64,000 nucleotides of DNA, taken from contig NZ_CBDICW010000001.1 in the NCBI RefSeq assembly GCF_965277465.1, forward strand, positions 451,654-515,653, in the 5' to 3' direction. The notes under the pieces were generated by a model. The model was not told the DNA's origin. It worked only from the letters and a program-made list of their open reading frames with translations, and searched no databases. The stretch comes from Mucilaginibacter sp. (lineage in GTDB: Bacteria; Bacteroidota; Bacteroidia; Sphingobacteriales; Sphingobacteriaceae). The position numbers were made by a program, and so were the translations under genes. This document shows positions 6,986 to 30,691 of this stretch, one piece after another (the first letter of the stretch is position 1; every line of letters starts with the position of its first letter).

Positions 6986-8035
6986 ATGTTCAGTAAGCTA
7001 AACAAGTGGGCAGGGGTAGCGATTTTCGCTATAGCGATGATGGTAGTCTCCTGGTATAGTCTGAAGGGCCATGGGTTAACAGATTCCGGAAGGGTCGTCC
7101 AATGGATGGCCGGAGACCTGCTTTTTATTTTGATGTATTGGAGTTTATACCGTTTAGCCTTTAGATCGATTAGCAAAAAATGGCCATTGGCTTTCCAGGT
7201 CAGAAAGCGCTTATTCTTCCGGCTACTATGGGTCATCGCTTCGATTTTGATCATTGGCGCCGCTTTGGATACCTTAAATTACGGCTTGCCTTATTTTTTT
7301 AAGGTTGGCAACAACCTCCAGAATTTTAATCACCTGGTGGAAAATAGCCTTTTATTTATCGCGCCGCTTATCCTTATTTATAACATTTACCTTTTTTTTC
7401 GTTTATATGAGCAAAATATTATTGAGAATGAACAGCTTAAGAAAGAGGCCCTGGTCGCTCAGTTTGAGATCCTGAAAAATCAAATAAGCCCGCATTTTTT
7501 ATTTAACAGCCTGAATGCTTTGATTGCACTGATACCCAAAGATGAAATGATGGCAGTTTCTTATACGCAAAAGCTGTCTAATGTCTATCGGCGATTATTG
7601 GATAATACCGGAAGACAAACGATCAGCCTGTCAGAGGAATTAATTTTCCTGGCTGATTACATCTTTATTTATGAAAGGCGCTTTGGGACTAAAATGGCGG
7701 TGAATATGGTTTTCCCTGATGATATCAAGCAACAGTTGGTCGTGCCGTTTGCGCTGCAAATGCTGGTTGAAAATGCAGTTAAACATAATACTATTTCGCG
7801 GAATAATCCGCTGACCATCCGGCTTTTTATCGAAGACGATCATATTGTGATAGAAAACAATCTCCAGGTTAGGAAAGCGCCCGTTGTCTCTACCGGTATA
7901 GGTCTTGAAAATATCATTAACCGCTACAATTTGTTAACCGGGAAACAGGTGATCGTTCTAAATACAGGCACCCATTTCCGCGTGTCATTACCGCTGATCC
8001 TTAAAGAAGATATTTATGAAAGTAATTATTATTGA
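6986..8035 (+). CDS. LytS/YehU-type sensor histidine kinase
   Basis: Multi-TM N-terminus. The His_kinase (PF06580-type) signature ISPHFLFNSLN and the N-box LVENAVKHN are present. It overlaps the downstream response regulator by 20 nt. Confidence 0.85.
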   Translation: MFSKLNKWAGVAIFAIAMMVVSWYSLKGHGLTDSGRVVQWMAGDLLFILMYWSLYRLAFRSISKKWPLAFQVRKRLFFRLLWVIASILIIGAALDTLNYGLPYFFKVGNNLQNFNHLVENSLLFIAPLILIYNIYLFFRLYEQNIIENEQLKKEALVAQFEILKNQISPHFLFNSLNALIALIPKDEMMAVSYTQKLSNVYRRLLDNTGRQTISLSEELIFLADYIFIYERRFGTKMAVNMVFPDDIKQQLVVPFALQMLVENAVKHNTISRNNPLTIRLFIEDDHIVIENNLQVRKAPVVSTGIGLENIINRYNLLTGKQVIVLNTGTHFRVSLPLILKEDIYESNYY

Positions 8036-8783
8036 GGATGAGGAACTCGCAGCAGAGCGGCTCGCCGGTATGCTCACGCAACTTGATCCAACGTTAGAAG
8101 TTATCGATGTCATAGAAAGTGTAGATGATGCAGTACGGCGATTTTCAGGCGGAATCCAGCCCGACCTGGTATTTATGGATATCCGGCTGGCCGACGGCGA
8201 ATCTTTTGAAATATTCGACCAGGTAAAAATAACCACACCGGTGATCTTTGTCACCGCCTATGACGAACATGCCATCAGGGCTTTCCAGGTCAACACCATA
8301 GATTATTTACTCAAACCGGTGGAGGTAGCAGCGCTCGAAAAGGCACTTGCCAAGTTTCATGCATATGCGCCTGTACCTTTGAATATTATGGCGCTCTTGA
8401 AATCATTGAATACCGGTTCTACAACTTCCGAACCACCTCGGAAATTCAAAGCGCGTTTTTTGGTCAGGTCTGGCGATAAATTTATTCCGGTAAGTACAAA
8501 TGATATCAGCTATTTCAGCTTCGAAAACAAATTGTCCTTTCTGCACCTGGCAAACGGGACGCGTTATATGTTGGATCAAACCATGGACGAACTGGAGGCC
8601 ACCCTCGATCCCGGCCTTTTTTTTCGCATCAGCCGCCAGTATATCGTTTCCTTTGAATCGGTTAAAACGGTGCATAATTTTTTTAACGGCAAACTTAAAG
8701 TATACCTTCACGCGTTGCCTGAAGATGGCATCATGGTCAGCCGCTACCGTGCTAATTTGTTAAAAGAATGGTTGAACCGGTAG
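8016..8783 (+). CDS. LytR/AlgR (LytTR DNA-binding) family response regulator
   Basis: It has a receiver domain (MKVIIIEDE...DLVFMDIRLADG...YLLKP). The C-terminal LytTR-like region contains FFRISRQYIVSFESV. Confidence 0.9.
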   Translation: MKVIIIEDEELAAERLAGMLTQLDPTLEVIDVIESVDDAVRRFSGGIQPDLVFMDIRLADGESFEIFDQVKITTPVIFVTAYDEHAIRAFQVNTIDYLLKPVEVAALEKALAKFHAYAPVPLNIMALLKSLNTGSTTSEPPRKFKARFLVRSGDKFIPVSTNDISYFSFENKLSFLHLANGTRYMLDQTMDELEATLDPGLFFRISRQYIVSFESVKTVHNFFNGKLKVYLHALPEDGIMVSRYRANLLKEWLNR

Positions 8784-8933
8784 TGGCCGTCTTTTGTCTC
8801 CCATTCTTAAATTCACTTTCATTTCAGTCAGTCTAATTAACCACTCGTACCTAAATTCCCGCCCTTGGGATACATTATGATTTCCTTACGAGGGTTTGCC
8901 TATTACTATTGCAGGAAATAATCAACGAAAGAC

Positions 8934-9344
8934 ATGACCACAACCCTAAAAACGCTGGCAGTAATGATCACCCTGCTGATTGCCCGTACCCAAATTGATC
9001 AGAAAAGTCCCCTGCTGATCGGTAGCTGGAAGGTAAGCGATATACACGCGGAATACCCGGCAACTTTGACAGCCATGGAAAAGATGAAAGCGGAACAATC
9101 CTTTATGTCAATGCAAAAAATGTTCGAATCTTCACCTTTTATTTTTGAGAAGAACGGTGACCTGACCGTTATGCAGAAATCTGCCAGCTGGGAATTAGCC
9201 AAAGATGAAAAATCTTTCAAGATCATCCTGATGAAGAATGAGGGCCTCGACGCCAACATAGTTTCTCTCAGTGCAAAAAAACTGGTCTTCACCGTATTAG
9301 ACCACGACATCAAAGAGACTTTTGATCTTGAAAAAATCAAATAA
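8934..9344 (+). CDS. hypothetical small exported protein (lipocalin-like?)
   Basis: 136-aa ORF with a hydrophobic N-terminus. No recognisable catalytic motif. Confidence 0.45.
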   Translation: MTTTLKTLAVMITLLIARTQIDQKSPLLIGSWKVSDIHAEYPATLTAMEKMKAEQSFMSMQKMFESSPFIFEKNGDLTVMQKSASWELAKDEKSFKIILMKNEGLDANIVSLSAKKLVFTVLDHDIKETFDLEKIK

Positions 9345-9394
9345 TAAACTAATTGCCAGTTATTTATATCGTTTATCAACAAATTTAATAGGTT

Positions 9395-9943
9395 ATGCTT
9401 AAAAAGATATTGACCCTGAGCCTTTCTGTCGCTTGCCATTCCTGCTTTGCGCAATCAGGGCCTCCACCCGCTGAAGGGCCGGATCGCGGTTATATTGTTA
9501 AAGTCGGCCAGGAGGCCCCGGACAATTTCATTCTCAAATTAACGGATGGGACAACCACATCACTTAAGGCACTTCGCGGAAAAGTTGTTGTACTGCAACT
9601 GACGGCCAGTTACTGCACCGTTTGCCGTCTGAAATTTCCGCACTTGGAGCATGAGCTGTGGTTGCCATTAAAAGACAAAAACTTTATGCTGATAGCCTTA
9701 GACCGGGATGAGCCACTCGCTAAGGCCATTAAATTTAAAAAAGATATTCAAATTACTTATCCGATGGCGCTTGATCCCGGAGCAGAAATATTCGGCAAGT
9801 TTGCTTATAAACAAGCTGGAATCGCGAGGGACATTGTCATAGATCAAAATGGCAGGATAGTCTTTCTGACAAGGCTCTTTGATCAGAAAGAATTTGAAGA
9901 GATGACCTTGAAGATTAAGAGTCTCCTGTCCAAATCCTTATAA
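9395..9943 (+). CDS. TlpA/redoxin-family thiol:disulfide oxidoreductase
   Basis: Signal peptide and a thioredoxin-fold CxxC motif (SYCTVC) in the context GKVVVLQLTASYCTVCRLKFPHLE. Confidence 0.8.
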   Translation: MLKKILTLSLSVACHSCFAQSGPPPAEGPDRGYIVKVGQEAPDNFILKLTDGTTTSLKALRGKVVVLQLTASYCTVCRLKFPHLEHELWLPLKDKNFMLIALDRDEPLAKAIKFKKDIQITYPMALDPGAEIFGKFAYKQAGIARDIVIDQNGRIVFLTRLFDQKEFEEMTLKIKSLLSKSL

Positions 9944-10059
9944 TGATAACGTAGCAACGCGATGATGCCAATCGGAATTACTTATGGGGAAGGAGTTGTT
10001 AAGGAAACCCGTTAAATAAAATCGAAATACAGCGCATTGAGCATGAATTGTGCATTTTT

Positions 10060-18589: not shown

Positions 18590-18606
18590 GGGGGTGTTTA
18601 GCCCCC
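18590..18606 (-). terminator. short hairpin after the DUF932 gene
   Basis: On the minus strand: GGGGG-CTAAACA-CCCCC followed by TTTATAAATT. Confidence 0.4.
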
Positions 18607-18618
18607 TGTTGGTTATTG

Positions 18619-19677
18619 TTAGTTTAACGTATTACCATGTTTGGCAAATTCAGTGCATAAATCAAAGGCGGTTTGACTGCGTTGCAACCCCGTCCCGTAC
18701 ATGATGCTTTTAAATTTGCTTTCATCATCCTTGAAGTTTCGGACATTCTGAAAATATCCCGTAACCGCATTGTAAGCACCAAACAAAGTTCCTTTTGTGG
18801 TCGCTTCCTGCTGTGTTGGGCTGGTTAGGGCATATTCCATAACACTACTTACCATATTATTATAAGTAGTGCTTAATTCGTCCTGCTTCCCGTTTTGCAG
18901 ATTTTGCAATACTTCCTTATTCGGTGCCATTGCAATTTGTATCAAATGCTTAACGGCATTATCTGTAATACGGATTTTCGACCAATGGTTAAACACTTCT
19001 TCCAGTTCGTCGGCTAACTGGTTGGTAATCCCTAATAATTGATGTGCTTGTTTTAGCCTTTCGTTTGCGCTGGCGGTATGCCGTATTTTAATGCCGTTGC
19101 TATGGTTACGCATGGCAGCGTTTAACGTATTGGCGCAAACTATCCTAACAGGTGTAAAAGCTGCGGTAATACTGCCGTAACCATCGTGCGAAGTAGTTAA
19201 AAACAAATACTGCTCTATTAAATCATCTTTTCCAACCCTGATATAATCGGGCAGTTTAGCGGTAATAAAAATACGCTCCCCTTTGCCCAACGCTCCGGCG
19301 GTTTCGTATAAAATCCCGTCCTTACCCCCTACGATGCTATCGAAAAACTCAAAGGCGTTTACATTCTGTACCACTTCGTAATCTTTGCCAACTACGCCCA
19401 AAACTTGTTCAGTATCGTTGCGGATGGTGGCGTAAAAATCGGGCACTTCAATTTCGGGGATTAAAATATCCATGTCGGGGTCGCCTGTATGATTTTCAGT
19501 ATCATACGTAAATAAAGGGCGTTTTTCAACGGTGTAGTTTAACCCTGCGTGTATAATCGCTTCTGCGCTCGTGGGATAATCTGTAATGATCTGCCCTAAG
19601 TTGTGCCAGGCTTTTTCCTTTACTGAAAAAAAACTGTGCTTTGCTGTTTGCTCGTTATAATTAAGATTGTGTGCCAT
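18619..19677 (-). CDS. DUF932 domain protein (phage/plasmid-like protein, TIGR03299-type)
   Basis: 352 aa. N-terminus MAHNLNYNEQTAKHSFFSVKEKAWHNLGQII. Core LGVVGKDYEVVQNVNAFEFFD...ETAGALGKGERIFITAKLP...FLTTSHDGYGSITAAFTPVRIVCANTL matches my recollection of the DUF932 family. Confidence 0.8.
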   Translation of the reverse strand: MAHNLNYNEQTAKHSFFSVKEKAWHNLGQIITDYPTSAEAIIHAGLNYTVEKRPLFTYDTENHTGDPDMDILIPEIEVPDFYATIRNDTEQVLGVVGKDYEVVQNVNAFEFFDSIVGGKDGILYETAGALGKGERIFITAKLPDYIRVGKDDLIEQYLFLTTSHDGYGSITAAFTPVRIVCANTLNAAMRNHSNGIKIRHTASANERLKQAHQLLGITNQLADELEEVFNHWSKIRITDNAVKHLIQIAMAPNKEVLQNLQNGKQDELSTTYNNMVSSVMEYALTSPTQQEATTKGTLFGAYNAVTGYFQNVRNFKDDESKFKSIMYGTGLQRSQTAFDLCTEFAKHGNTLN

Positions 19678-19861
19678 TGTTGTTTTTGTTTAATTGTTCT
19701 TTATTCAGTTTAATAATCTCTGTTTCCAATACTTCCACATTGTCGGTACTGCCGATGCTGTATTGGGTTTGGTTTTCCAATTCTTTCATAGCATCCTGTA
19801 TATGCTGGTACTTGGTTTGGATAACCACTTTGATAAATAGAAATACGGTGTCTGTCCTCAT
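19661..19861 (-). CDS. hypothetical small protein (66 aa)
   Basis: ATG start. It overlaps the DUF932 start by 17 nt and begins 4 nt after the stop of the upstream 41-codon ORF, so the packing is operon-like. Confidence 0.35.
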   Translation of the reverse strand: MRTDTVFLFIKVVIQTKYQHIQDAMKELENQTQYSIGSTDNVEVLETEIIKLNKEQLNKNNNGTQS

Positions 19862-19865
19862 TGGA

Positions 19866-19991
19866 TTAGTTGTAATTATTAATGAAATCGTTTAACTCGG
19901 AATTGAAAACTGTGGGGTTTTCATTTGCTAATTGCTGTGCATAACCATCCCAAAAAATTTGGTTGGTTAATTCGATAAATAATTCTAACAT
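19866..19991 (-). CDS. hypothetical micro-protein (41 aa)
   Basis: Below the ORF-track cutoff. Manual translation: MLELFIELTNQIFWDGYAQQLANENPTVFNSELNDFINNYN. It abuts the next ORF. Confidence 0.3.
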   Translation of the reverse strand: MLELFIELTNQIFWDGYAQQLANENPTVFNSELNDFINNYN

Positions 19992-20031
19992 TGTCTTAGC
20001 TTTTAAGAAAATAGAAGTTTTTAAAAACGCT

Positions 20032-20052
20032 CCCTGCAATTCAGATGCAGGG
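20032..20052 (-). terminator. rho-independent-type terminator after the 194-aa gene
   Basis: On the minus strand: CCCTGCA-TCTGAAT-TGCAGGG followed by AGCGTTTTTAAAAA. Confidence 0.5.
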
Positions 20053-20067
20053 GGCGTTTTCCATTAA

Positions 20068-20652
20068 TTAAGCGGGAATAATGATACCTGCTTCAATCTG
20101 CGCCAGTTTGTCTAGACAAAGGGCGTTCACATACTGCGTTACATGAAAAATGATTACCGGGTTTTTAGTGGTAAAGCTTTTGCCCTTGTCATCTGCAATG
20201 GTTAGTTCGCACCGGGAATAATTGGTTATCCCGCTTTCTTCGGCTTCATCCTTTTGGTTAACCTCAAAAGCTTCCAAACTTTGGATTGTATCCATTAATT
20301 TATCCCGTTGCACCTTACGGCGGTGCAGTTCTTCCACCAATTTTAACGTACTCTCTAAATTCAGTACAGGTTTAGCGGGTTTTACTTCCTCGGCAACTTT
20401 CTTTGGTTCTTCTGCCTTTGGCTGTTCTGCCACAAATTTGGGACTGTTCTCCGCCTGTACTATTTCTTTAGGCTGTTCGGTTGCCTGTACGGGTACAGGG
20501 GTTTCCGTTTTCTTCGGTTCGTCCTTTTTGGCTTCGCCGTTTAAAGTGGTACTTACAGGCAAATTGTTTGCCTTTGCAGTTTCGTTATTGTTACCTGTGA
20601 TATTTGCCCTGTTATTGTTAATCTCTGTTGTTTTTACTTCTGCGGTTTTCAT
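20068..20652 (-). CDS. hypothetical protein with Pro/Lys/Glu-rich low-complexity N-terminal half
   Basis: 194 aa. The N-terminal half is low-complexity (KKDEPKKTETPVPVQATEQPKE...EQPKAEEPKKVAEEVKPAKP) and the C-terminal ~90 aa look globular. Confidence 0.55.
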   Translation of the reverse strand: MKTAEVKTTEINNNRANITGNNNETAKANNLPVSTTLNGEAKKDEPKKTETPVPVQATEQPKEIVQAENSPKFVAEQPKAEEPKKVAEEVKPAKPVLNLESTLKLVEELHRRKVQRDKLMDTIQSLEAFEVNQKDEAEESGITNYSRCELTIADDKGKSFTTKNPVIIFHVTQYVNALCLDKLAQIEAGIIIPA

Positions 20653-20819
20653 AATTTCTAATTTTTAAAAGTTTTTAATAAATTCAGTAATTGCCCTAAT
20701 GAGGCGTTTTGCAATGGCGGGGCGGTTTGTCCGTTCCGCTGTTGGGCTGTGTGTGGTGGGCTTCTGCCGTTTGCTGTTTTCATGGTTGCTTTTCTTTTTA
20801 AAGTCAGTCGGCAGGGCCT

Positions 20820-20996
20820 CCTGGCTTTTTGTTAAGCAACCTCACCTGAACACAAGCCCTTTGTAAGGCAAGACTTTGCGAAAAAAAATACGCTTGCGAG
20901 GAACGAGCAAGGAAGATTTTTTTTCAGCAAACCCGCAGGGCCCCGGTCTTGACGTCAAAGGGCTTGTTCAGAAATTTGCTAACCAAAAAGCCTGGG
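20820..20996. repeat. ~177-nt imperfect palindrome (long multi-stem hairpin)
   Basis: Manual pairing gave five stems. Stem A: 20820-20839 with 20977-20996, 17/20. Stem B: 20846-20863 with 20956-20971, 16 bp with a 2-nt bulge. Stem C: 20867-20874 with 20946-20953, 7/8. Stem D: 20875-20889 with 20916-20931, 15 bp with a 1-nt bulge. Apical stem: CTTGC/GCAAG at 20893-20897 and 20907-20911. Confidence 0.8.
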
Positions 20997-21271
20997 GGAA
21001 TTTTTAAAAGGACATAGAAAACAGTATTAGAAAACAAGGAGTGGCGGTAAAAAGTTCGTGTGGTTTGGGTGAGCGCAGGCGATGCCCAAATCGCACGGTC
21101 TTTTAAAATGCAGGGAAGCGGCTGAATGAGGGACGAATGAAGTGACTGGACCTGCTGAGATACCTGGTGTCAATGCGGCTTGGCATAGTCAGTATGGTGC
21201 AGATTATTCACCAAAGCTTATAGGAGTTTATTGTTTTTTTGCCGACGATAATAATTACATTGATTTGAAAT

Positions 21272-21829
21272 TTAAAGTTTAGCCACCATTTGCCGGGCTT
21301 CCTGTACCAGTTCCTCTTTTTCTTTAACCGATGTTGTGAAGCCGAAATTTTCCCGTGCTTTGGCATATTGGTTTAGGATGTATTGGAATTTGATTTTGAG
21401 ACTTTCTTTGGTTTCCAGTTTTTCCGCGATTGTTTTAATCAGACGCTCCGTTTCCGCTGATTTTTCGATGTGTGCCTGGTGACTATTTATTAAATCTTTA
21501 TTCGCTTTCAACACCTGACCGTTAAAGCAGTCCAGTATTTTGATTTGGGATTGTACCATGCGGTCAACTTCGGTCTTGACAGGAATTAGTATTTTTTCTT
21601 CCTGCGCCCGGATGAAGCGGATGTAAGTGTCATGATTTTTAACAAGCGTATTTTTAAGTATTTCATCATTGATGTCAGAAGGGTCCTTTTTGGTACGGTG
21701 GAAATATTCTACCATCTTATTGAAGAACTGGAACTTGCTTAAGCTGAATTTTTGGGAAAGTTTACTAAGCTTTTCGTCTGTCTCCGCTGAAAAACGGAGG
21801 GTCTTGCTATAATTGTCTTTTGTGCTCAT
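21272..21829 (-). CDS. hypothetical protein; possible small oriT-binding mobilization accessory protein (BfmA/BtgA-like, unverified)
   Basis: 185 aa. The N-terminus TLRFSAETDEKLSKLSQKF looks ribbon-helix-helix-like and the rest is predicted coiled-coil. The family assignment is from memory only. Confidence 0.4.
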   Translation of the reverse strand: MSTKDNYSKTLRFSAETDEKLSKLSQKFSLSKFQFFNKMVEYFHRTKKDPSDINDEILKNTLVKNHDTYIRFIRAQEEKILIPVKTEVDRMVQSQIKILDCFNGQVLKANKDLINSHQAHIEKSAETERLIKTIAEKLETKESLKIKFQYILNQYAKARENFGFTTSVKEKEELVQEARQMVAKL

Positions 21830-22146
21830 TTTGTTTGTACTTATAAGGTGACTTATGGTTATTTCGGCCTTGCCGATAGTCCTGGGGCCTCAACTTATAC
21901 CAGGAGTATAAGTTAACCCCCCGTAGCGATAGCGTAGGGCAAGCAAAGTAGGGCTCTGCCCAACTTCCGCTTGCTCCATTTTTTTTCAAAAATGGACGCG
22001 GTTAAAACTCCAAACGATGCTTCGCACCGAAGCCGCTTGCCGGCTGCAATACCGCTTCGCGGGTTGCACCGGGGCGGCGCTTGTCCCTGTGGGCTAAATT
22101 CGCTGTCGCGGTGAATAAGAAATGGCAGCTACTTCACTTTTAACAA

Positions 22147-22683
22147 TTACAAATCATCCGATTTATACCCAATTCTTTTGCGCGGTATCGGTTCATTTTT
22201 CTTTTCCAATAGTTCATCCAAATAGCGGAATACGATCTCCATGTTTTTATCCTGGTTATCCAACTTTGATTTTATTTTTTCCACCTCTAATCGTAAATCA
22301 GTATTATCAAACAGCATTTGCCGCAGTTTGGTGAAAATGCGAATGATCTGTATGTTGACCTTAATCGCCCGTTCGCTGTTTAAAACGCTGGATAACATAG
22401 CAACTCCCTGTTCGGTAAAACAAAAAGGAACATACCTTAAACCTTGTTGGTCTGATTTGGAGGTCACAAATTGTGACCTCCAAATTTGAAATTCCTCTTT
22501 ATCCATTTCAAACATAAAATCCTCCGGGAACCTTACGATGTTACGTTTTACAGACTGTTTCAAAACCTTTGTTTCTACTTGGTATAGCTTAGCCAGATCA
22601 CGGTCTAACATAACTTTATGATCCCTTATGTAATAGATTTGGTTCATTACTATTTCATCGGGTATTAGTGCGTTCTCTTCCAT
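22147..22683 (-). CDS. ORF6N (KilA-N-like) domain DNA-binding protein
   Basis: IYYIRDHKVMLDRDLAKLYQVETKVLKQSVKRNIVRFPEDFMFEM...WRSQFVTS...FCFTEQGVAMLSSVLNSERAIKVNIQIIRIF is the characteristic ORF6N pattern. Confidence 0.85.
   Translation of the reverse strand: MEENALIPDEIVMNQIYYIRDHKVMLDRDLAKLYQVETKVLKQSVKRNIVRFPEDFMFEMDKEEFQIWRSQFVTSKSDQQGLRYVPFCFTEQGVAMLSSVLNSERAIKVNIQIIRIFTKLRQMLFDNTDLRLEVEKIKSKLDNQDKNMEIVFRYLDELLEKKNEPIPRKRIGYKSDDL
22455..22485. repeat. 31-bp perfect palindrome P1, inside the ORF6N coding sequence
   Basis: ATTTGGAGGTCACAA-A-TTGTGACCTCCAAAT: 15-bp arms around a central A. It encodes WRSQFVTSK. Confidence 0.9.
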
Positions 22684-22713
22684 AATTTGGATGCTTTTAA
22701 TTTGTCTTAAATT

Positions 22714-22744
22714 AACTTAAGGTCGCAAATTGCGACCTTAAGTT
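22714..22744. repeat. 31-bp perfect palindrome P2, in the integrase/ORF6N intergenic region (also a possible integrase terminator)
   Basis: AACTTAAGGTCGCAA-A-TTGCGACCTTAAGTT. It shares the core AGGTC(A/G)CAAATTG(T/C)GACCT with P1. Confidence 0.9.
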
Positions 22745-22754
22745 TTTGAGTAAT

Positions 22755-23984
22755 TTATTCATTAGCAAATTTTTTCCTAAGCAATGCCATATCCTTACTG
22801 ACTTTCAAATCCAAAACTTTTGCATAATGCTGTGTGGTTTTAATATTGGTGTGACCTAACATCTTGCTCACACTTTCGATAGGTACGCCATTAGATAAAG
22901 TTACCGTTGTAGCGAATGTGTGCCGGGCCATGTGAAATGTGAGCGTTTTAGTAATACCGCATATATCAGCTATTTCCTTTAAGTAGCTGTTCATCCGTTG
23001 ATTACTCAAAACAGGCAAAACAAGGTTCTTATTTACGCATTGCGGGTGATCGGCGTATTTGTTTACAATGTCGGCGGCTATGGCTAATAACGGTATTCTT
23101 GAATTGGTATCTGTTTTTTGCCTTGTTGTAAATATCCATTGTTCACCGTCAACACCTTTAGCTATTTGGTGGCGTTGTAATTTCTGCACATCTGCATAAC
23201 ATAAGCCGGTATAACAGCAGAATACAAATATATCCCGCACCTGTATCAGCCTTTCAATAGTGATACCCTTAATCACTATGGCCTCCAGTTCATTCTGCAT
23301 TAAAAACTCTTTTTCTTTCGCTTTGGCCTTTGATCTGTAATTGATAAATGGATTATCACTTAACCATTTGTTAGCTAAACAATTGTTAACGATCTTTTTT
23401 AGGTGCTTTACATATTTGGCGGCAGATACCCCGCTGCATTTGCATACCGTTTTTAGGTAAAATTCATAATTGACAATAAAGGCATGGTTCAAACTTTTAA
23501 TATCCATATCAGCTATGCCATATTGATGCTGCACAAACAACGACAAGTGTTTATATGAACTGCGATAACTTTTAAGGGTGTTGGCTACAAAGCCATTGCC
23601 AATTAATGCTTTTACCTGGTCGTTATGCTCATTAAATAACGCTACTATATAGTAGGGTTTTTCTGCACGGCCAATAAATTGATTACGTAACCTGTCGGCG
23701 GTAATACTTTCACCTGCTCCAATTAGTTGCTGGTGCGCATTCATTACTTTGGCTTGCAACGTGTCTAAGTAACTGTTTAAAGCCCTTACTTCCGATTTAG
23801 TGCCAATGCCCCGCCCAGCGTGGTTGTTCCACCCTGATGGCTCACAATCCCGTCCGGCAGACACTTCCGAACGTTTGCCATTAACGGTGATACGCATATA
23901 GACAGGCATGTTACCTGATACGTAAGCTTTTTGTTTCTTTAAATAAAAAAGCAGATTGAAATTAGTTTTCATGATTACAAGCAT
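22755..23984 (-). CDS. tyrosine-type site-specific integrase (Bacteroidota mobile-element type)
   Basis: The C-terminal catalytic region contains HMARHTFATTV and LGHTNIKTTQHYAKV. The N-terminal part is Arm/SAM-like (FYLKKQKAY...PVYMRITVNGKR). The track start at 23999 is a TTG inside a -7 box, so I moved the start to the first ATG (MLVIMKT...); the ATG at 23972 is also possible. Confidence 0.9.
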   Translation of the reverse strand: MLVIMKTNFNLLFYLKKQKAYVSGNMPVYMRITVNGKRSEVSAGRDCEPSGWNNHAGRGIGTKSEVRALNSYLDTLQAKVMNAHQQLIGAGESITADRLRNQFIGRAEKPYYIVALFNEHNDQVKALIGNGFVANTLKSYRSSYKHLSLFVQHQYGIADMDIKSLNHAFIVNYEFYLKTVCKCSGVSAAKYVKHLKKIVNNCLANKWLSDNPFINYRSKAKAKEKEFLMQNELEAIVIKGITIERLIQVRDIFVFCCYTGLCYADVQKLQRHQIAKGVDGEQWIFTTRQKTDTNSRIPLLAIAADIVNKYADHPQCVNKNLVLPVLSNQRMNSYLKEIADICGITKTLTFHMARHTFATTVTLSNGVPIESVSKMLGHTNIKTTQHYAKVLDLKVSKDMALLRKKFANE

Positions 23985-23996
23985 TAAAAAGTTAAA

Positions 23997-24004
23997 CAAA
24001 TGTA
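23997..24004 (-). promoter_or_regulatory. Bacteroidota -7 promoter box (TACATTTG) for the integrase
   Basis: Exact match to TAnnTTTG on the minus strand, immediately upstream of the first ATG. Confidence 0.45.
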
Positions 24005-24160
24005 TGCTTGCAACTAATAGGTATCAAGATGTTCAATTATTGAACTGGTTGACAGTCAATAATTTACAGCGTTTTTGGTGAGTAGTAACTTGACTTTATG
24101 GTACTCACCGAATTACTCACTTTTTTAACGTGATTTGGTGCATATTTTGGTGTTTTGACC

Positions 24161-24197
24161 AAAAAACAAAAGCCTGCAATCATTTGATTTGCAGGCT
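24161..24197 (-). terminator. rho-independent terminator downstream of tRNA-Arg
   Basis: On the minus strand: AGCCTGCAA-ATCAAATGA-TTGCAGGCT followed by TTTGTTTTTT. Confidence 0.7.
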
Positions 24198-24224
24198 TTT
24201 ATCGTATTTTGATATTGATTTTAG

Positions 24225-24296
24225 TGGTCCCGACGAGAATCGAACTCATATCTAGAGTTTAGGAAACTCCTATTCTATCCGTTGAACTACGGGACC
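24225..24296 (-). tRNA. tRNA-Arg (anticodon CCT)
   Basis: Manual cloverleaf fold. Acceptor stem GGTCCCG/CGGGACC; D stem GTTC/GAAT; anticodon stem GGAGT/ACTCT with loop TTCCTAA; T arm ATGAG-TTCGATT-CTCGT; discriminator A. CCA is not encoded. Confidence 0.9.
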
Positions 24297-24411
24297 GGTT
24301 TGCTTTACGCGGATTTTGAATGTGCAAATGTGCGAATTTTGAACGAGTTAGTCAACAAACATTTGCAGTTATGCGTATTTGCCTTTTTAACGTACTAATT
24401 GCAGTTGCGCA

Positions 24412-26570: not shown

Positions 26571-27500
26571 ATGGATACACATTTATCAGCCATAACTGCC
26601 CTGCCCGAGATTCCTTTTCTTAAAAAAGGAGATAAGATAGCAATCACCTGCCCGGCCAAGAAACTGCCTAACCCCATGACGGATGCCATAACCCTGCTGC
26701 AATCATGGGGCTTAGTAGTTGTTTTGGGCGATACCGTTACTGCCAGCTATAACCAGTTTGCCGGCGATGACGCCTTTAGGGCGAAAGACCTGCAGCGCTT
26801 TATTGATGACGACAGCATTAAGGCTATTATTGCTGCACGCGGTGGATACGGAACTGTGAGGATGATTGACCTGGTTGATTTTAGCCGTTTTGCCCAAAAC
26901 CCAAAATGGGTAATAGGTTTCAGTGATATTACGCTGCTGCATGCGCACTTGTTTGCAAATTACAATGCACCCAGCATACACGGGCAAATGCCCATGACCA
27001 TTCCCGATGCTTCGGCCAGGTCATTGGATACCTTAAGGAAAGCTTTATTTGGCGAGGAGATCAGTTATCAGCTTGCACCAAATACAATGAACCGGCAAGG
27101 TGAAGGAAGCGGCCTGCTGATAGGCGGCAATCTTTCTATATTGCTCTCGGCATCAGGCTCGGTTTCGGATATGGATTACCGGGATAAAATATTGTTTATT
27201 GAGGATATTGGCGAGTACCTGTACGCGGTAGACCGGATGCTGCGCACCCTGAAACGCGCAGGAAAGTTAGCACACCTGGCGGGGATAATAGCCGGGGGCT
27301 TTACCGATATAAAAGATAATGACATCCCCTTTGGGCAAACCGTACCCGAAATTATTATGGACATAGTTAAAGAATATAATTACCCGGTATGCTTTGATTT
27401 CCCGGCAGGGCATGTGCCTGATAATTGCAGCCTGATATTAGGGAAAACGCTAAATTTGTGTGTAACAGCTACAGGCGCAAGCATAAATTACACTTTTTGA
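26571..27500 (+). CDS. LD-carboxypeptidase (peptidase S66 family)
   Basis: GFSDITLLH (nucleophile Ser context), the FIEDIGE motif, and a C-terminal H (PAGH). The start is set at the first ATG; the track start is TTG-GTG-ATG. Confidence 0.85.
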   Translation: MDTHLSAITALPEIPFLKKGDKIAITCPAKKLPNPMTDAITLLQSWGLVVVLGDTVTASYNQFAGDDAFRAKDLQRFIDDDSIKAIIAARGGYGTVRMIDLVDFSRFAQNPKWVIGFSDITLLHAHLFANYNAPSIHGQMPMTIPDASARSLDTLRKALFGEEISYQLAPNTMNRQGEGSGLLIGGNLSILLSASGSVSDMDYRDKILFIEDIGEYLYAVDRMLRTLKRAGKLAHLAGIIAGGFTDIKDNDIPFGQTVPEIIMDIVKEYNYPVCFDFPAGHVPDNCSLILGKTLNLCVTATGASINYTF

Positions 27501-27543
27501 TCATATTTTTTTCAAACTCCATCTACCAAAAAAACATACAAGC

Positions 27544-27951
27544 ATGGCAATATTGAGCAATTTGGGCAAATACAAAAACTTTGGCCTGTTAATTATCAGG
27601 ATTGGGTTGGGTATAATGTTCATTTTTCATGGCTACCCTAAATTGGGCGGCGGCGTAAAAACCTGGGAACAGATTGGCACTTCAACCAAATATATTGGTA
27701 TTCATTTTTGGCCGGTAGTTTTTGGCCTGCTCAGCGTGGTGGTTGAAACATTTGGCGGTTTCCTGCTTATCATAGGCCTTGCATTTAGGCCCGTTTGCCT
27801 TTTAATGATAATAAACCTTATTGTAGCCGCTTTATTTCACTTTGGCAAAGGCGATGGCCTTGAAGGTGCTGCGCATGCTATTGAAGATGCGATAATGTTT
27901 GCAGGGCTCTTGTTTTTGGGTGCAGGGAAATATAGTGTAGATAAAAAATAG
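27544..27951 (+). CDS. DoxX family membrane protein
   Basis: 135 aa with four hydrophobic segments and the typical DoxX start LLIIRIGLGIMFIFHGYPKL. Confidence 0.8.
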   Translation: MAILSNLGKYKNFGLLIIRIGLGIMFIFHGYPKLGGGVKTWEQIGTSTKYIGIHFWPVVFGLLSVVVETFGGFLLIIGLAFRPVCLLMIINLIVAALFHFGKGDGLEGAAHAIEDAIMFAGLLFLGAGKYSVDKK

Positions 27952-27984
27952 AAAACCGGTTGCAAAAACCAATTCTGCAACCGG
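27951..27984 (-). terminator. hairpin terminator after the peptide genes (shared convergently with doxX)
   Basis: CCGGTTGCA-N11-TGCAACCGG. On the minus strand it is followed by TTTTC. Confidence 0.6.
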
Positions 27985-27999
27985 AAAATATGCAAACTA

Positions 28000-28200
28000 T
28001 TATGGGCAATACTCGCCGCCTGTGCAGGATACGTTTGAGTTATAGCATGAATATTCGCCGCAATACACAGCAGGATCGCCGGTTGAACAGGTACCAGCCG
28101 TCATAAAGGGTGATGTAGCGGTATCCTGGCAGTGCCAGATAGTTTTAAGGCCAACGCCACCTGTTACATCTTTCATTTCTTGTCTTGATAGTTTTTCCAT
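28000..28200 (-). CDS. double-glycine-leader, six-cysteine peptide precursor (bacteriocin-like), copy 2
   Basis: MEKLSRQEMKDVTGG | VGLKTIWHCQDTATSPFMTAGTCSTGDPAVYCGEYSCYNSNVSCTGGEYCP. Confidence 0.75.
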   Translation of the reverse strand: MEKLSRQEMKDVTGGVGLKTIWHCQDTATSPFMTAGTCSTGDPAVYCGEYSCYNSNVSCTGGEYCP

Positions 28201-28259
28201 GATGAAATTTTAAGGGTTAGTTGTGAATTAAATTGATTTATGATAATTTGCTAAATTAA

Positions 28260-28460
28260 TCAGGGGCATAGTTCAGCACCGGTGCACACTACATTGGAGT
28301 TGTAGCAGGAGTATTCACCGCAATGCGCGTAAGGATCGGTTGTTGAACAGGTACCTACCGTCATATAGGGCAGGTTTGGGGTATCTCTGCAATACCAAAT
28401 GGTTTTAGTAACTATGCCACCAGTTACATCCTTCATTTCTTTTCTGGATAATTTTTTCAT
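28260..28460 (-). CDS. double-glycine-leader, six-cysteine peptide precursor (bacteriocin-like), copy 1
   Basis: MKKLSRKEMKDVTGG | IVTKTIWYCRDTPNLPYMTVGTCSTTDPYAHCGEYSCYNSNVVCTGAELCP. By manual alignment 47/66 positions are identical to copy 2, and all 6 Cys align. Confidence 0.75.
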   Translation of the reverse strand: MKKLSRKEMKDVTGGIVTKTIWYCRDTPNLPYMTVGTCSTTDPYAHCGEYSCYNSNVVCTGAELCP

Positions 28461-28543
28461 TTGCTTTAAGGTTTGGTTTTAACTTATTATCCTAAAGTTA
28501 ATTAAAATATTAATCAATAAGAAATAGAAAAAATTTAAAAGCA

Positions 28544-28575
28544 TAAAAAAACCCATCCTTAAATTAGGATGGGTT
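28544..28575 (-). terminator. rho-independent terminator after the 324-aa gene
   Basis: On the minus strand: AACCCATCC-TAATTTAA-GGATGGGTT followed by TTTTTTT. Confidence 0.75.
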
Positions 28576-28600
28576 CATAAATCTGAAGTATTAATCTACG

Positions 28601-29575
28601 TTATTGACCTAAATTAATATTTAAATCAGCTAAATAATCTTCATCCACATCTCTTGAACCCTGATCTGCAATAAACTTATCAGCATCACCGGCAAATATT
28701 TCTTTAATTGTTTTTTTCCTAAGTGAGATAGAAACTGGCTTTGCACCATCTTTAACTACATAATACCTTTCAACATCTACATATTCGTCATAACGATGGC
28801 CTGATTCAATAACGCCATCAGTATGAAAATCAGCAGCAACCAGTTTTGTATCCACTTTTTTGTAAATCTTAACCTTAGGGCTGTTAACCAAAATCTCTAT
28901 ATACGGTTTACCGTTAATCTCGGGCGCACTTACAAAAATATGCGGGTGGCCTTTGCCATCAAACAACGTAAAACTTTTAACCTCCCCTTTAGGGATCATA
29001 CTCGTCGTTTTTTTGTCTTCAGATAACAACAGGTTACCATTAATTTTGTCGTAGTTATAAACGGTGCCAATATCAGCCAATAGTGTGTCACTTTTGTTTA
29101 TGCCAAAAGCGGGTAACCAGTTAGCAAACATGTAACGGCTACCTCTTGTTTCTTCTTGATTAAAGCCGGTTTTAATAGTTTGAGAAAACGCACCTAAATT
29201 TGTAGTAACCAATAATTGTCTGTTCATTAAAAAACTATTTGATCCGCCAGCATTATCGGCATCTGTTTTTGTTGAGGCCGCTTCTGAACCATTGGAAATC
29301 ATTACCATTTTAATTTTTTGACTTCCGCCAATAGCTACTACTTCATTTTTATAATGAGGGGCTAATGCCACCAGTGACGAAGCCGGATCAACCCTTAAAT
29401 GAAAGTTACCAACAGAGTCAGAAAATGTAGCATAGTTATGTTTTATATCCTTTATAAATGCAAAGGGTACAGGCTCGCCTGCCTGGTTGCTCACCGTTCC
29501 GTTAACCAATACGGTTTGCCCAAAACTAAAAGATGCTATAATGCTAAATAAAAAGCAAAAGTTCAAAATTTTCAT
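28601..29575 (-). CDS. secreted protein with N-terminal carboxypeptidase-regulatory-like domain, function unknown
   Basis: Signal peptide, then the pattern VNGTVSNQAGEPVPFAFIKD...SDSVGNFHL (CarboxypepD_reg-like). The remainder is unrecognised. Confidence 0.55.
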   Translation of the reverse strand: MKILNFCFLFSIIASFSFGQTVLVNGTVSNQAGEPVPFAFIKDIKHNYATFSDSVGNFHLRVDPASSLVALAPHYKNEVVAIGGSQKIKMVMISNGSEAASTKTDADNAGGSNSFLMNRQLLVTTNLGAFSQTIKTGFNQEETRGSRYMFANWLPAFGINKSDTLLADIGTVYNYDKINGNLLLSEDKKTTSMIPKGEVKSFTLFDGKGHPHIFVSAPEINGKPYIEILVNSPKVKIYKKVDTKLVAADFHTDGVIESGHRYDEYVDVERYYVVKDGAKPVSISLRKKTIKEIFAGDADKFIADQGSRDVDEDYLADLNINLGQ

Positions 29576-29751
29576 ATGTTCCTATAATAAGATTAAGATT
29601 TTTAAAGATAAGGATCATCGCCCAAAACCACCACCTAAGCTGCCTGTTTTATTTTAACCCTGAGTAACAATTTGGTTATAAAACGCTCTATTTCATGCTT
29701 AAAGATCTCTTTTATTTAATTATAATATAAATTCTAAGAAATAAAAAAGCC

Positions 29752-29790
29752 GCCTAATTTATAATTAGACGGCTTTTTTTATTTGGTATT
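29752..29790 (-). terminator. bidirectional-type hairpin terminator after the lipoprotein gene
   Basis: A-run, GCCGCCTAATT-TATA-ATTAGACGGC, then a T-run. Confidence 0.7.
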
Positions 29791-29794
29791 ATGC

Positions 29795-30691
29795 TTAGTT
29801 GTGTACTATAACGTCAGCAATTACCCTATTACCTGTACCACCTATATATTTATAGTTAAGGTTAAAGGTTTTAGTTGCAGGATTGTAAGTACAATCACCA
29901 TTGTTTTGAATAGTTTGATTTGGTGAAGTAGGAGCAGGAGTTACAGTAACAGTATTATCTGCATTTACTGTTAAATACATGTAGTATCCATTTCCGCCCA
30001 AATCAGCCGCTTCAGTTTCGCTGGTTGTTGCGTTTATGGTAGTTAAAGGTTTATCACGAGCAGCCCATGACCTGTTTGATGCCGGATTAGGGAATGAAAT
30101 AGAACCTGTAGCTGAATAATCTCCATCGTAGATGTTTTTAACACCCAACACAGCAACTATAGTATCAGCACTTGTACCATCATCTAAATGCTTTCCAGAA
30201 AAACCACCGTGGTTTGTTATTGCATAAGCAACAGCATATTTCTGAGATGGATCAAAATTGGCTCCATTAACATTCAGCACATAGTTTTTTGCAAAAACAC
30301 CAGCAGCAAAATTCATTGTTACGCCTGTAGCCGATGTAGTAATGCTATTATCTGAAGCTTGTGTTGCCAATGAACTTGGGATAGCACTATAGGTACCGAA
30401 TTTTGCTTTAAAAGCGGTAGTAGTAATATCAATAGCTGTTAATGTAACGGTTACGGCTTTTTGAAGATCTGCTTTACTTGCAGCATCACGCCTTACAGAA
30501 AACATGGTAACAGGTATGGTATTAGTAAACGGCAGGAAAAACTGGTTGTTTTGCTGCGCTTCGGTAATCCACACATAGGTTTTACCTGATTGTAGTGTTT
30601 CCTTGCCTTTGTAAGGATCTTTTCGGCACGCGCTGAAAAGCACCATTACAGAGCAACTAAGAAACAGATATTGTAAAAATGTCTTTTTCAT
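29795..30691 (-). CDS. PUL-associated surface lipoprotein, function unknown
   Basis: Lipobox LFSAC. The protein is Thr/Ala/Asn-rich and beta-rich, and sits immediately downstream of SusD, as DUF1735-type PUL accessory proteins do. Confidence 0.55.
   Translation of the reverse strand: MKKTFLQYLFLSCSVMVLFSACRKDPYKGKETLQSGKTYVWITEAQQNNQFFLPFTNTIPVTMFSVRRDAASKADLQKAVTVTLTAIDITTTAFKAKFGTYSAIPSSLATQASDNSITTSATGVTMNFAAGVFAKNYVLNVNGANFDPSQKYAVAYAITNHGGFSGKHLDDGTSADTIVAVLGVKNIYDGDYSATGSISFPNPASNRSWAARDKPLTTINATTSETEAADLGGNGYYMYLTVNADNTVTVTPAPTSPNQTIQNNGDCTYNPATKTFNLNYKYIGGTGNRVIADVIVHN

Follow-up and report, generated by a model that had tools for sequence, protein, structure and literature searches.

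Two tandem six-cysteine peptide genes of Mucilaginibacter sp., probable orphan double-glycine-leader precursors of bacteriocin-like peptides

The 64-kb stretch of Mucilaginibacter sp. DNA analysed in this work (the window) carries two adjacent paralogous genes, here named pepA and pepB, each encoding a small precursor with a double-glycine leader and a cysteine-rich core. The best overall explanation, to which we assign a probability of about 0.7, is that they are orphan precursors of bacteriocin-like secreted peptides, with the exporter encoded elsewhere. The genes around them belong to a conserved chromosomal backbone that mostly occurs without the peptides, and a homologue in another locus adjoins an exporter gene whose orthologues belong to an export and oxidation module in several Mucilaginibacter genomes.

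Organization of the pepA/pepB transcription unit

The features of the locus are listed in Table 1. The two precursors are identical at 47 of 66 residues (71%) and their genes at 145 of 201 nucleotides, and both have Cys at positions 24, 38, 47, 52, 59 and 65. The leaders follow the pattern M(K/E)KLSR(K/Q)EMKDVTGG, and the C-terminal block CGEYSCYNSNVxCTGxExCP, read from the sequence, is the same at 17 of 20 positions. These features had been reported in a first-pass annotation of the same DNA and were confirmed; its description of the pair as a transcription unit of its own agrees with the terminator-like hairpins found on both sides. The upstream hairpin closes the gene for a 324-aa protein and so separates the peptide pair transcriptionally from it. 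No terminator-like element occurs in the 59-nt spacer between pepA and pepB, which are apparently co-transcribed.

Table 1. Features of the pepA/pepB locus and other window genes discussed in the text
Feature	Position in window	Strand	Remarks
pepA	28260..28460	-	66-aa precursor; RefSeq WP_428327726.1, 'bacteriocin-like protein'
pepA leader	28416-28460	-	codons 1-15; MKKLSRKEMKDVTGG
pepA core	28263-28415	-	51 aa, six Cys
pepB	28000..28200	-	66-aa paralogue of pepA; RefSeq WP_428327725.1, 'hypothetical protein'
pepB leader	28156-28200	-	MEKLSRQEMKDVTGG
pepB core	28003-28155	-	
Presumed promoter and 5'UTR	28461..28548	-	AT-rich, 88 nt, from upstream terminator to pepA start codon
Upstream intrinsic-terminator-like hairpin	28549..28576	-	closes the 324-aa gene
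Downstream intrinsic-terminator-like hairpin	27956..27984	-	16 nt past the pepB stop codon; stem of 12 bp, then a T run
DoxX-family membrane protein gene	27544..27951	+	135 aa; convergent with pepB; conserved backbone neighbour
TlpA/ResA-like thiol-disulfide oxidoreductase gene	9395..9943		
LytTR two-component pair	6986-8783		about 20 kb from the peptide genes

The region upstream of pepA is presumed to act as the promoter. Some 32 nt ahead of the ATG it contains TAACTTTA, which matches the Bacteroidota TAnnTTTG -7 motif at 7 of 8 positions. A CCTTAAA motif is present in the 5'UTR of pepA and also in those of homologues. The 5'UTR motif AACCYTTAAA is found four times in the window against 1.0 expected, a count of four being reached by 2 of 100 shuffles, and was rejected as a general signal. 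An Rfam search of positions 27000-30000 matched nothing but a terminator hairpin (29.74-29.82 kb), which fell short of the gathering scores.

Both genes appear to be maintained. The dN/dS ratio between pepA and pepB is about 0.12, and a comparison of pepB with the L003 gene, its nearest relative at a different locus, gives about 0.07. The low ratios and the retention of the six Cys in homologues indicate selection on both genes, and a dS of about 1.6 between the paralogues places their duplication far back. The two are thus old coding genes kept by selection and not chance open reading frames.

Leaders and core family

In both peptides the Gly-Gly pair at -2/-1 is preceded by Val at -4, Met at -7, Glu at -8, Leu at -12 and Met at -15. 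In the double-glycine consensus recognised by C39 peptidase domains, positions -4, -7, -12 and -15 are hydrophobic and position -8 is acidic, and by this comparison the pepA and pepB leaders fit the canonical form. Against the NCBIfam model NF047798 ('leader_Chryseo', named 'bacteriocin-like protein'), pepA scored 25.3 bits and pepB 22.2 bits, respectively above and just below the curated cut-off of 23.5 bits. These scores explain the names given by RefSeq/PGAP, in line with which pepB is a 'hypothetical protein'. The proposal of the first-pass annotation that the leaders mark substrates of C39-ABC transporters is therefore supported by the NF047798 match of pepA, and also by the homologue in L009 that adjoins such a transporter.

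The remaining models reached the leader only. The matches to TIGR04149 and CCPGW ranged from 13.5 to 16.5 bits, with cut-offs of 25 and 80 (TIGR04149 gave 13.5 and 14.4 bits for the two peptides), and TIGR03949 (lactobin A/cerein 7B) gave 12.6 and 13.1 bits with a cut-off of 21.5. Pfam gave no match for either peptide, and at the level of the core nothing in NCBIfam or Pfam matched, bacteriocin models included. The profile searches that the first-pass annotation had called for thus place the pepA leader in a known leader family, while TIGR04149 membership is not supported and the cores stand outside all of these models.

When 1.84 billion representative proteins were searched exhaustively with HMMER, a profile of the two cores recovered three clusters; a profile search of a set of 5.8 billion sequences found seven proteins. 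The loci around the homologues yielded further tandem partners and a divergent variant with eight Cys, which brings the family to about 13 distinct sequences and one decayed remnant. In GTDB representative genomes, a collection that evidently lacks the source species, a scan with core patterns returned just two spurious short partial matches (Hydrogenophaga and a Chitinophagaceae MAG). By these searches the 51-aa core is a rare and uncharacterised peptide family. Its sequences come nearly all from Mucilaginibacter-type metagenome loci.

Conserved under purifying selection, all six Cys are invariant across eight homologues; the same is true, or nearly so, of Trp7, a D/N-P pair and some further residues. 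Given this conservation, a disulfide-rich secreted core is plausible, which agrees with the three disulfides suggested in the first-pass annotation. The core profile found no match in the PDB at E<=10. An AlphaFold2 model made with an eight-sequence alignment was beta-rich with low confidence (pLDDT 65.7), and no PDB structure compared with it by Foldseek had an E-value below 3.5. With a pI of 4.3-4.75 and a net charge of -2 to -3, the cores are acidic; at a GRAVY of about -0.1 they are also not hydrophobic, and in these properties they differ from typical membrane-active class II bacteriocins. The calculated average masses of the reduced cores are 5643.3 Da for pepA and 5377.9 Da for pepB, and three disulfides would lower each by about 6 Da.

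The tandem arrangement raises the question of a two-peptide, class IIb-like bacteriocin, in which pepA and pepB would both be obligatory toxin components. The apparent co-transcription across a spacer free of terminators would suit this explanation, as would the two family genes (one six-Cys and one eight-Cys, or two six-Cys) found in several related loci and the sub-threshold TIGR03949 match. That match is confined to the leader, however, and the cores are hydrophilic and disulfide-rich, with no amphipathic helices carrying GxxxG. Moreover, the two peptides are close paralogues and not complementary peptides, and a single family gene is found in L009, L010 and L018, so a two-peptide bacteriocin is very unlikely.

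Window neighbourhood

In the orientation of the peptide genes, the order is a SusC/SusD pair, a second SusC/SusD pair, a BT_3044-like gene, the gene for the 324-aa protein (with a weak CarboxypepD_reg N-terminus), pepA and pepB. Beyond pepB, the opposite strand carries DoxX, whose gene ends 49 bp from the pepB stop codon, and an S66 LD-carboxypeptidase; the methionyl-tRNA synthetase gene (MetRS) follows. Among about 45 open reading frames of the window, scans with Pfam and NCBIfam found neither a C39-ABC exporter nor a HlyD adaptor nor a radical-SAM enzyme, as the first-pass annotation had stated, and no DUF692 or DUF2063 gene. An immunity gene for pepA and pepB is likewise not evident. The same annotation had also found no small membrane or redox protein to assign to the pair; DoxX and the TlpA/ResA-like oxidoreductase do exist in the window, but neither is specifically linked to the peptides.

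Co-occurrence in related loci

The contigs on which homologues were found cover this same region. Conservation of the arrangement was evaluated in 80 metagenome loci anchored on DoxX orthologues, 67-82% identical to the window protein. S66 adjoins DoxX in 72 of the 80 loci, MetRS follows S66 wherever the DoxX-anchored contig extends far enough, and the opposite flank of DoxX often carries 324-aa-like and SusD genes. The order MetRS-S66-DoxX-(324-aa-like)-SusD, which recurs in most of the 80 loci, is therefore a conserved Mucilaginibacter backbone. Both flanks of DoxX could be read for 700 bp or more in 50 loci; a family peptide was found in 4 of these and none in the other 46. One of the four, L054, has a leaderless remnant that has lost the last Cys. 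No other type of double-glycine-leader peptide was found at the DoxX site in the DoxX-anchored loci. In a tree of DoxX and S66, peptide-bearing and peptide-less loci are interleaved. The peptide genes at the DoxX site are a sporadic, decaying accessory insert that forms no functional unit with its neighbours.

These counts bear directly on the novel system suggested in the first-pass annotation, in which the peptides would belong together with the 324-aa protein and a double SusC/D locus devoid of CAZymes. In such a system they might, for example, be ligands or signals for the TonB-dependent transporters of that locus. In the window the peptide, 324-aa and SusC/D genes are contiguous on the same strand, and the same gene order recurs in L007, L008 and L018. 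However, the block of SusC/D, BT_3044-like and 324-aa-like genes is peptide-less in most related loci, a strong terminator lies between the 324-aa gene and pepA, and L003-L006 carry peptides with no 324-aa gene. The number of 324-aa-like paralogues per homologue locus varies from none (L003) to five (L008), independently of the peptides. With peptides at 4 of 50 sites and an interleaved tree, the novel system loses its basis and is extremely unlikely, and the predicted conserved linkage to the 324-aa gene and SusC/D was largely refuted, no specific linkage being observed.

A separate question is whether DoxX, the sole small membrane protein beside the peptide pair, is a dedicated partner, which would oxidise the six Cys as a quinone-linked thiol oxidase or else provide immunity. 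In the window and in L003-L008, L010, L018 and L063, family genes are found on one side of DoxX or the other at a distance of 55-500 bp. Nearly all family members are this close to a DoxX orthologue, and the proximity was counted in nine distinct loci. By sequence, the six-Cys genes of L003 and L007 have pepB as their closest relative. DoxX-type genes are also known from operons that encode exported, Cys-modified peptides, the bufferins among them (PMC11626156), and the window protein weakly matches the HvfX RiPP-maturation family (NF050144, 38.6 bits). That score falls well short of the cut-off of 80, though, and in the bufferin operons DoxX is dispensable (PMC11626156). Furthermore, DoxX is convergent with the peptide genes and not co-transcribed with them, and the same DoxX stands by S66 and MetRS in the 46 fully flanked loci that are peptide-less. 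The homologue P0002 sits instead with an exporter gene (see below), and P0007 occurs in a different context with no DoxX in sight. A dedicated DoxX partner was rejected as the main explanation on co-occurrence and is improbable. Passive synteny accounts for the proximity in the nine loci, although less than perfectly. A broader form of the idea is likewise improbable: it supposes a new disulfide-rich six-Cys fold with a new extracellular target in a Mucilaginibacter-specific system, independent of a C39-type exporter or assisted by DoxX. The nearly constant place of the peptides beside DoxX would then mark a true functional dependence, with DoxX acting as a DsbB/VKOR-like membrane thiol oxidase or in self-protection.

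The first-pass annotation had set against its own proposal the picture of an already characterised bacteriocin family whose exporter is simply encoded elsewhere, with no conserved linkage to this neighbourhood. The absent linkage and, as far as can be judged from the evidence below, the distant exporter are essentially what we found; the family itself is not a characterised one.

Export and oxidation module

An indication of an exporter comes from L009. The 68-aa homologue P0002, which has 49% core identity and keeps all six Cys, is encoded there 107 bp upstream of the gene for a peptidase-containing ABC transporter (PCAT), a 725-aa Peptidase_C39/ABC_membrane/ABC_tran protein, and this gene is followed by one for a 406-aa HlyD-type adaptor. 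More than 120 clusters contain orthologues of this PCAT at 77-98% identity, and those that are named all come from Mucilaginibacter. Three genomic contexts were examined: that of Mucilaginibacter sp. MD40, that of GCA_035019925/625 (two unclassified strains) and that of three M. rubeus genomes. In all three the PCAT is part of the same module: genes for a C39-VKOR(-thioredoxin) fusion and for a thioredoxin/redoxin-like protein come ahead of it, together with one or two small genes, and a HlyD/AprE adaptor gene comes after it. The genes flanking this module vary between the contexts. The small genes encode double-glycine-leader peptides with six to nine Cys and unrelated cores, so the cargo varies by context. 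Their leaders follow the pattern L(S/N)RxEMKx(V/I)xGG, which pepA and pepB have in common with them. For Bacteroidota or Mucilaginibacter, a literature search on Cys-rich double-glycine peptides or C39-VKOR fusions returned nothing specific.

A PCAT orthologue of 80% identity, WP_428330732.1, is labelled 'Mucilaginibacter sp.' with taxid 1882438 and is encoded on a 2,346,916-bp contig. The window proteins WP_428327724 to WP_428327728 have the same taxid and lie on a 2,734,076-bp contig. The accession of the PCAT comes about 3,000 numbers after theirs, and three sources are common to both. From this label, the taxid and the closeness of the accessions, we infer that WP_428330732.1 is the exporter of the window's genome; the accession proximity and the metadata indicate that it is probably on a second contig of the same assembly.

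Comparison with known systems

The bacteroidetocins (class IIf) are mature peptides of about 42 aa with four Cys that target BamA, and their locus has four genes, encoding a multi-TM protein, the peptide, a thiol oxidoreductase and a PCAT; the accessory genes are all needed for full activity (Coyne et al. 2019, PMC6671954). Like pepA and pepB, they belong to Bacteroidota, have a 15-residue double-glycine leader and lack an immunity gene. Their core is unmodified except for disulfides, and we propose the same for pepA and pepB. Their biogenesis by PCAT, multi-TM protein and oxidoreductase is closely paralleled by the C39-VKOR-Trx, Trx-like, PCAT and HlyD module of Mucilaginibacter. On the other hand, the pepA/pepB core has 51 aa and six Cys, is acidic, and is encoded apart from the export and oxidation genes, with no four-gene locus of the bacteroidetocin type around the pair. 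In their proposed mode of biogenesis pepA and pepB resemble the bacteroidetocins and the class II bacteriocins with double-glycine leaders, but core length, Cys number and locus set them outside the bacteroidetocin family as defined.

Other families differ more clearly. The precursors of NF047798, related to TIGR04149 and CCPGW, share a leader type that pepA fits, and these models cover the leader or other cores. The rSAM-modified RiPPs of TIGR04149 have an adjacent radical-SAM maturase gene, of which the pepA/pepB window has none. In HvfX/bufferin-type systems, a DoxX scoring at least 80 bits against NF050144 is accompanied by an MNIO (DUF692) and a DUF2063 protein, a combination that the window does not contain. 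pepA and pepB are thus not TIGR04149, CCPGW or class IIb peptides.

The separation of precursor and exporter has parallels in other phyla. Prochlorosin precursors, and pneumococcal Blp and Cib peptides (processed by ComAB/BlpAB), are encoded away from a shared, leader-specific processing exporter. The cores and modification systems of these peptides are different, and the likeness to pepA and pepB is one of logic only. A survey of class II microcins (PMC12219008) contained nothing on orphan precursors or Bacteroidota. pepA and pepB are best filed as orphan precursors with a rare new core family among the double-glycine-leader peptides.

Proposed mechanism and role

According to the proposed mechanism, pepA and pepB would be expressed as orphan precursors, in each of which a double-glycine leader of 15 residues precedes a core of 51. 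A PCAT encoded elsewhere, for which WP_428330732.1 is the candidate, would recognise the leader through its C39 domain and cleave it after Gly15, and the core would be exported with a HlyD/AprE-type adaptor. Up to three disulfides may be formed by the C39-VKOR-thioredoxin and thioredoxin-like proteins of the module. The released acidic, hydrophilic mini-protein would then act extracellularly, and its most likely function is that of an antagonistic (bacteriocin-like) peptide that depends on a receptor. An antagonistic role is considered the most likely one for the cores in view of their patchy distribution, fast divergence and likeness to bacteroidetocins.

The acidic, hydrophilic character of the core argues against simple membrane permeabilisation and leaves room for a non-toxic role. 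Secreted through the same PCAT biogenesis, the peptides could instead be signals, metal-binding peptides or protease inhibitors. Their richness in Cys, the missing immunity gene and the LytTR two-component pair in the window would all suit such functions. No sensor linkage was seen, however, the LytTR pair being distant from the peptides, and bacteroidetocin producers likewise have no immunity genes (PMC6671954). A patchy, fast-diverging and decaying distribution is, in addition, typical of accessory antagonism genes. A non-antagonistic function is therefore a possible but rather unlikely alternative to the bacteriocin-like role.

Implications

The window does not define a new class of system, given that orphan double-glycine-leader genes are common and that RefSeq already labels pepA as bacteriocin-like. 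The useful result is twofold: the neighbourhood holds no novel system, and an export and oxidation hub of Mucilaginibacter has been described. This module of C39-VKOR-thioredoxin, Trx-like, PCAT and HlyD proteins, with its interchangeable Cys-rich cargo, is the more useful by-product of the analysis. If the orphan-precursor explanation is true, the pool of double-glycine-leader peptides in Bacteroidota gains one more uncharacterised core family, precursor genes may sit far from the PCAT hub that serves them, and the module would offer a route to the heterologous production of Cys-rich peptides.

Genomic context of the peptide genes

DoxX orthologues with 67–82% identity occur in 80 metagenome loci from soil, rhizosphere and peat, across which the order MetRS-S66-DoxX is fixed, and one cysteine (C85) is invariant in the aligned orthologues (n=5). 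In Mucilaginibacter, MetRS, the S66 LD-carboxypeptidase and DoxX form a conserved trio of housekeeping-like character. In related loci, the interval from the BT_3044-like gene to DoxX holds zero to five tandem paralogues of the 324-aa secreted protein, whose copy number varies without dependence on the peptide genes.

The region 18600–24300 of the window is probably an integrative element at tRNA-Arg(CCT), which also holds several family-less ORFs. The element appears to be specific to this genome, since the syntenic loci L003 and L008 carry different genes after MetRS. At ~18–21 kb from the peptides (6986–9943), a LytTR-type two-component pair is followed by a 136-aa unannotated ORF and then by the TlpA/ResA-like oxidoreductase.

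Coordinates of features in the window and in related loci (L numbers)
Feature	Location	Strand	Remark
His_kinase	window 6986..8035		LytTR-type pair
Response regulator	window 8016..8783		LytTR-type pair
TlpA/ResA-like thiol-disulfide oxidoreductase	window 9395..9943		after 136-aa ORF
DUF932	window 18619..19677		putative element
ORF6N	window 22147..22683		putative element
Tyrosine integrase	window 22755..23999	-	putative element
tRNA-Arg(CCT)	window 24224..24296	-	element's site
DoxX	window 27544-27951	+	
324-aa secreted protein	window 28601-29575	-	weak CarboxypepD_reg/CarbopepD_reg_2 match, N-terminus
324-aa family paralogues	L007 4566-8941; L008 3729-9420		
CCTTAAA-type motif	window 28209-28218, 28464-28475	-	5' of family start codons
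CCTTAAA-type motif	L008 ~9580-9630, ~9940-9990; L010 ~830-880; L018 upstream of 8700		
Eight-Cys family variant, divergent	L003 9100-9300; L007 9106-9309; L063 ~8505-8705	- (L063)	
Decayed six-Cys gene remnant	L054 7605-7772	-	between S66 and DoxX
PCAT module	L092 5775-13484; L094 2741-9519; L096 2336-9486		conserved in Mucilaginibacter

Putative export and oxidation module in Mucilaginibacter

The C39-peptidase ABC transporter (PCAT) module, for which literature searches found no description, comprises a C39-VKOR(-thioredoxin) fusion, a thioredoxin/redoxin-like protein, one or more Cys-rich GG-leader peptides, a 725-aa PCAT and an HlyD/AprE adaptor, and is similar to the bacteroidetocin four-gene locus. 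In the three loci its flanking genes are not the same, and the cargo cores, with 6–9 cysteines, are unrelated.

Possible regulatory motif, divergent variant and decayed remnant of the peptide family

The start codons of many family genes are preceded, at 10–25 nt, by a CCTTAAA-type motif. In L008, L010 and L018 it lies in a hairpin loop; these hairpins are short, and their stems differ in sequence but keep their complementarity. The motif could be a 5'UTR regulatory element.

The eight-Cys variant (for example, MKKLSRDEMRKIAGG-TNKYQWSCYSSSYGGYVTICSATDPSSHCTICGSDCTNTGVSCGNATICIC) is the sole family gene found in L063. In L003 and L007, eight-Cys and six-Cys genes lie on opposite sides of DoxX, the former on the side away from S66. 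The six-Cys remnant in L054 has neither leader nor start codon, and its last cysteine is substituted; it directly evidences the loss of a family gene from the DoxX site.
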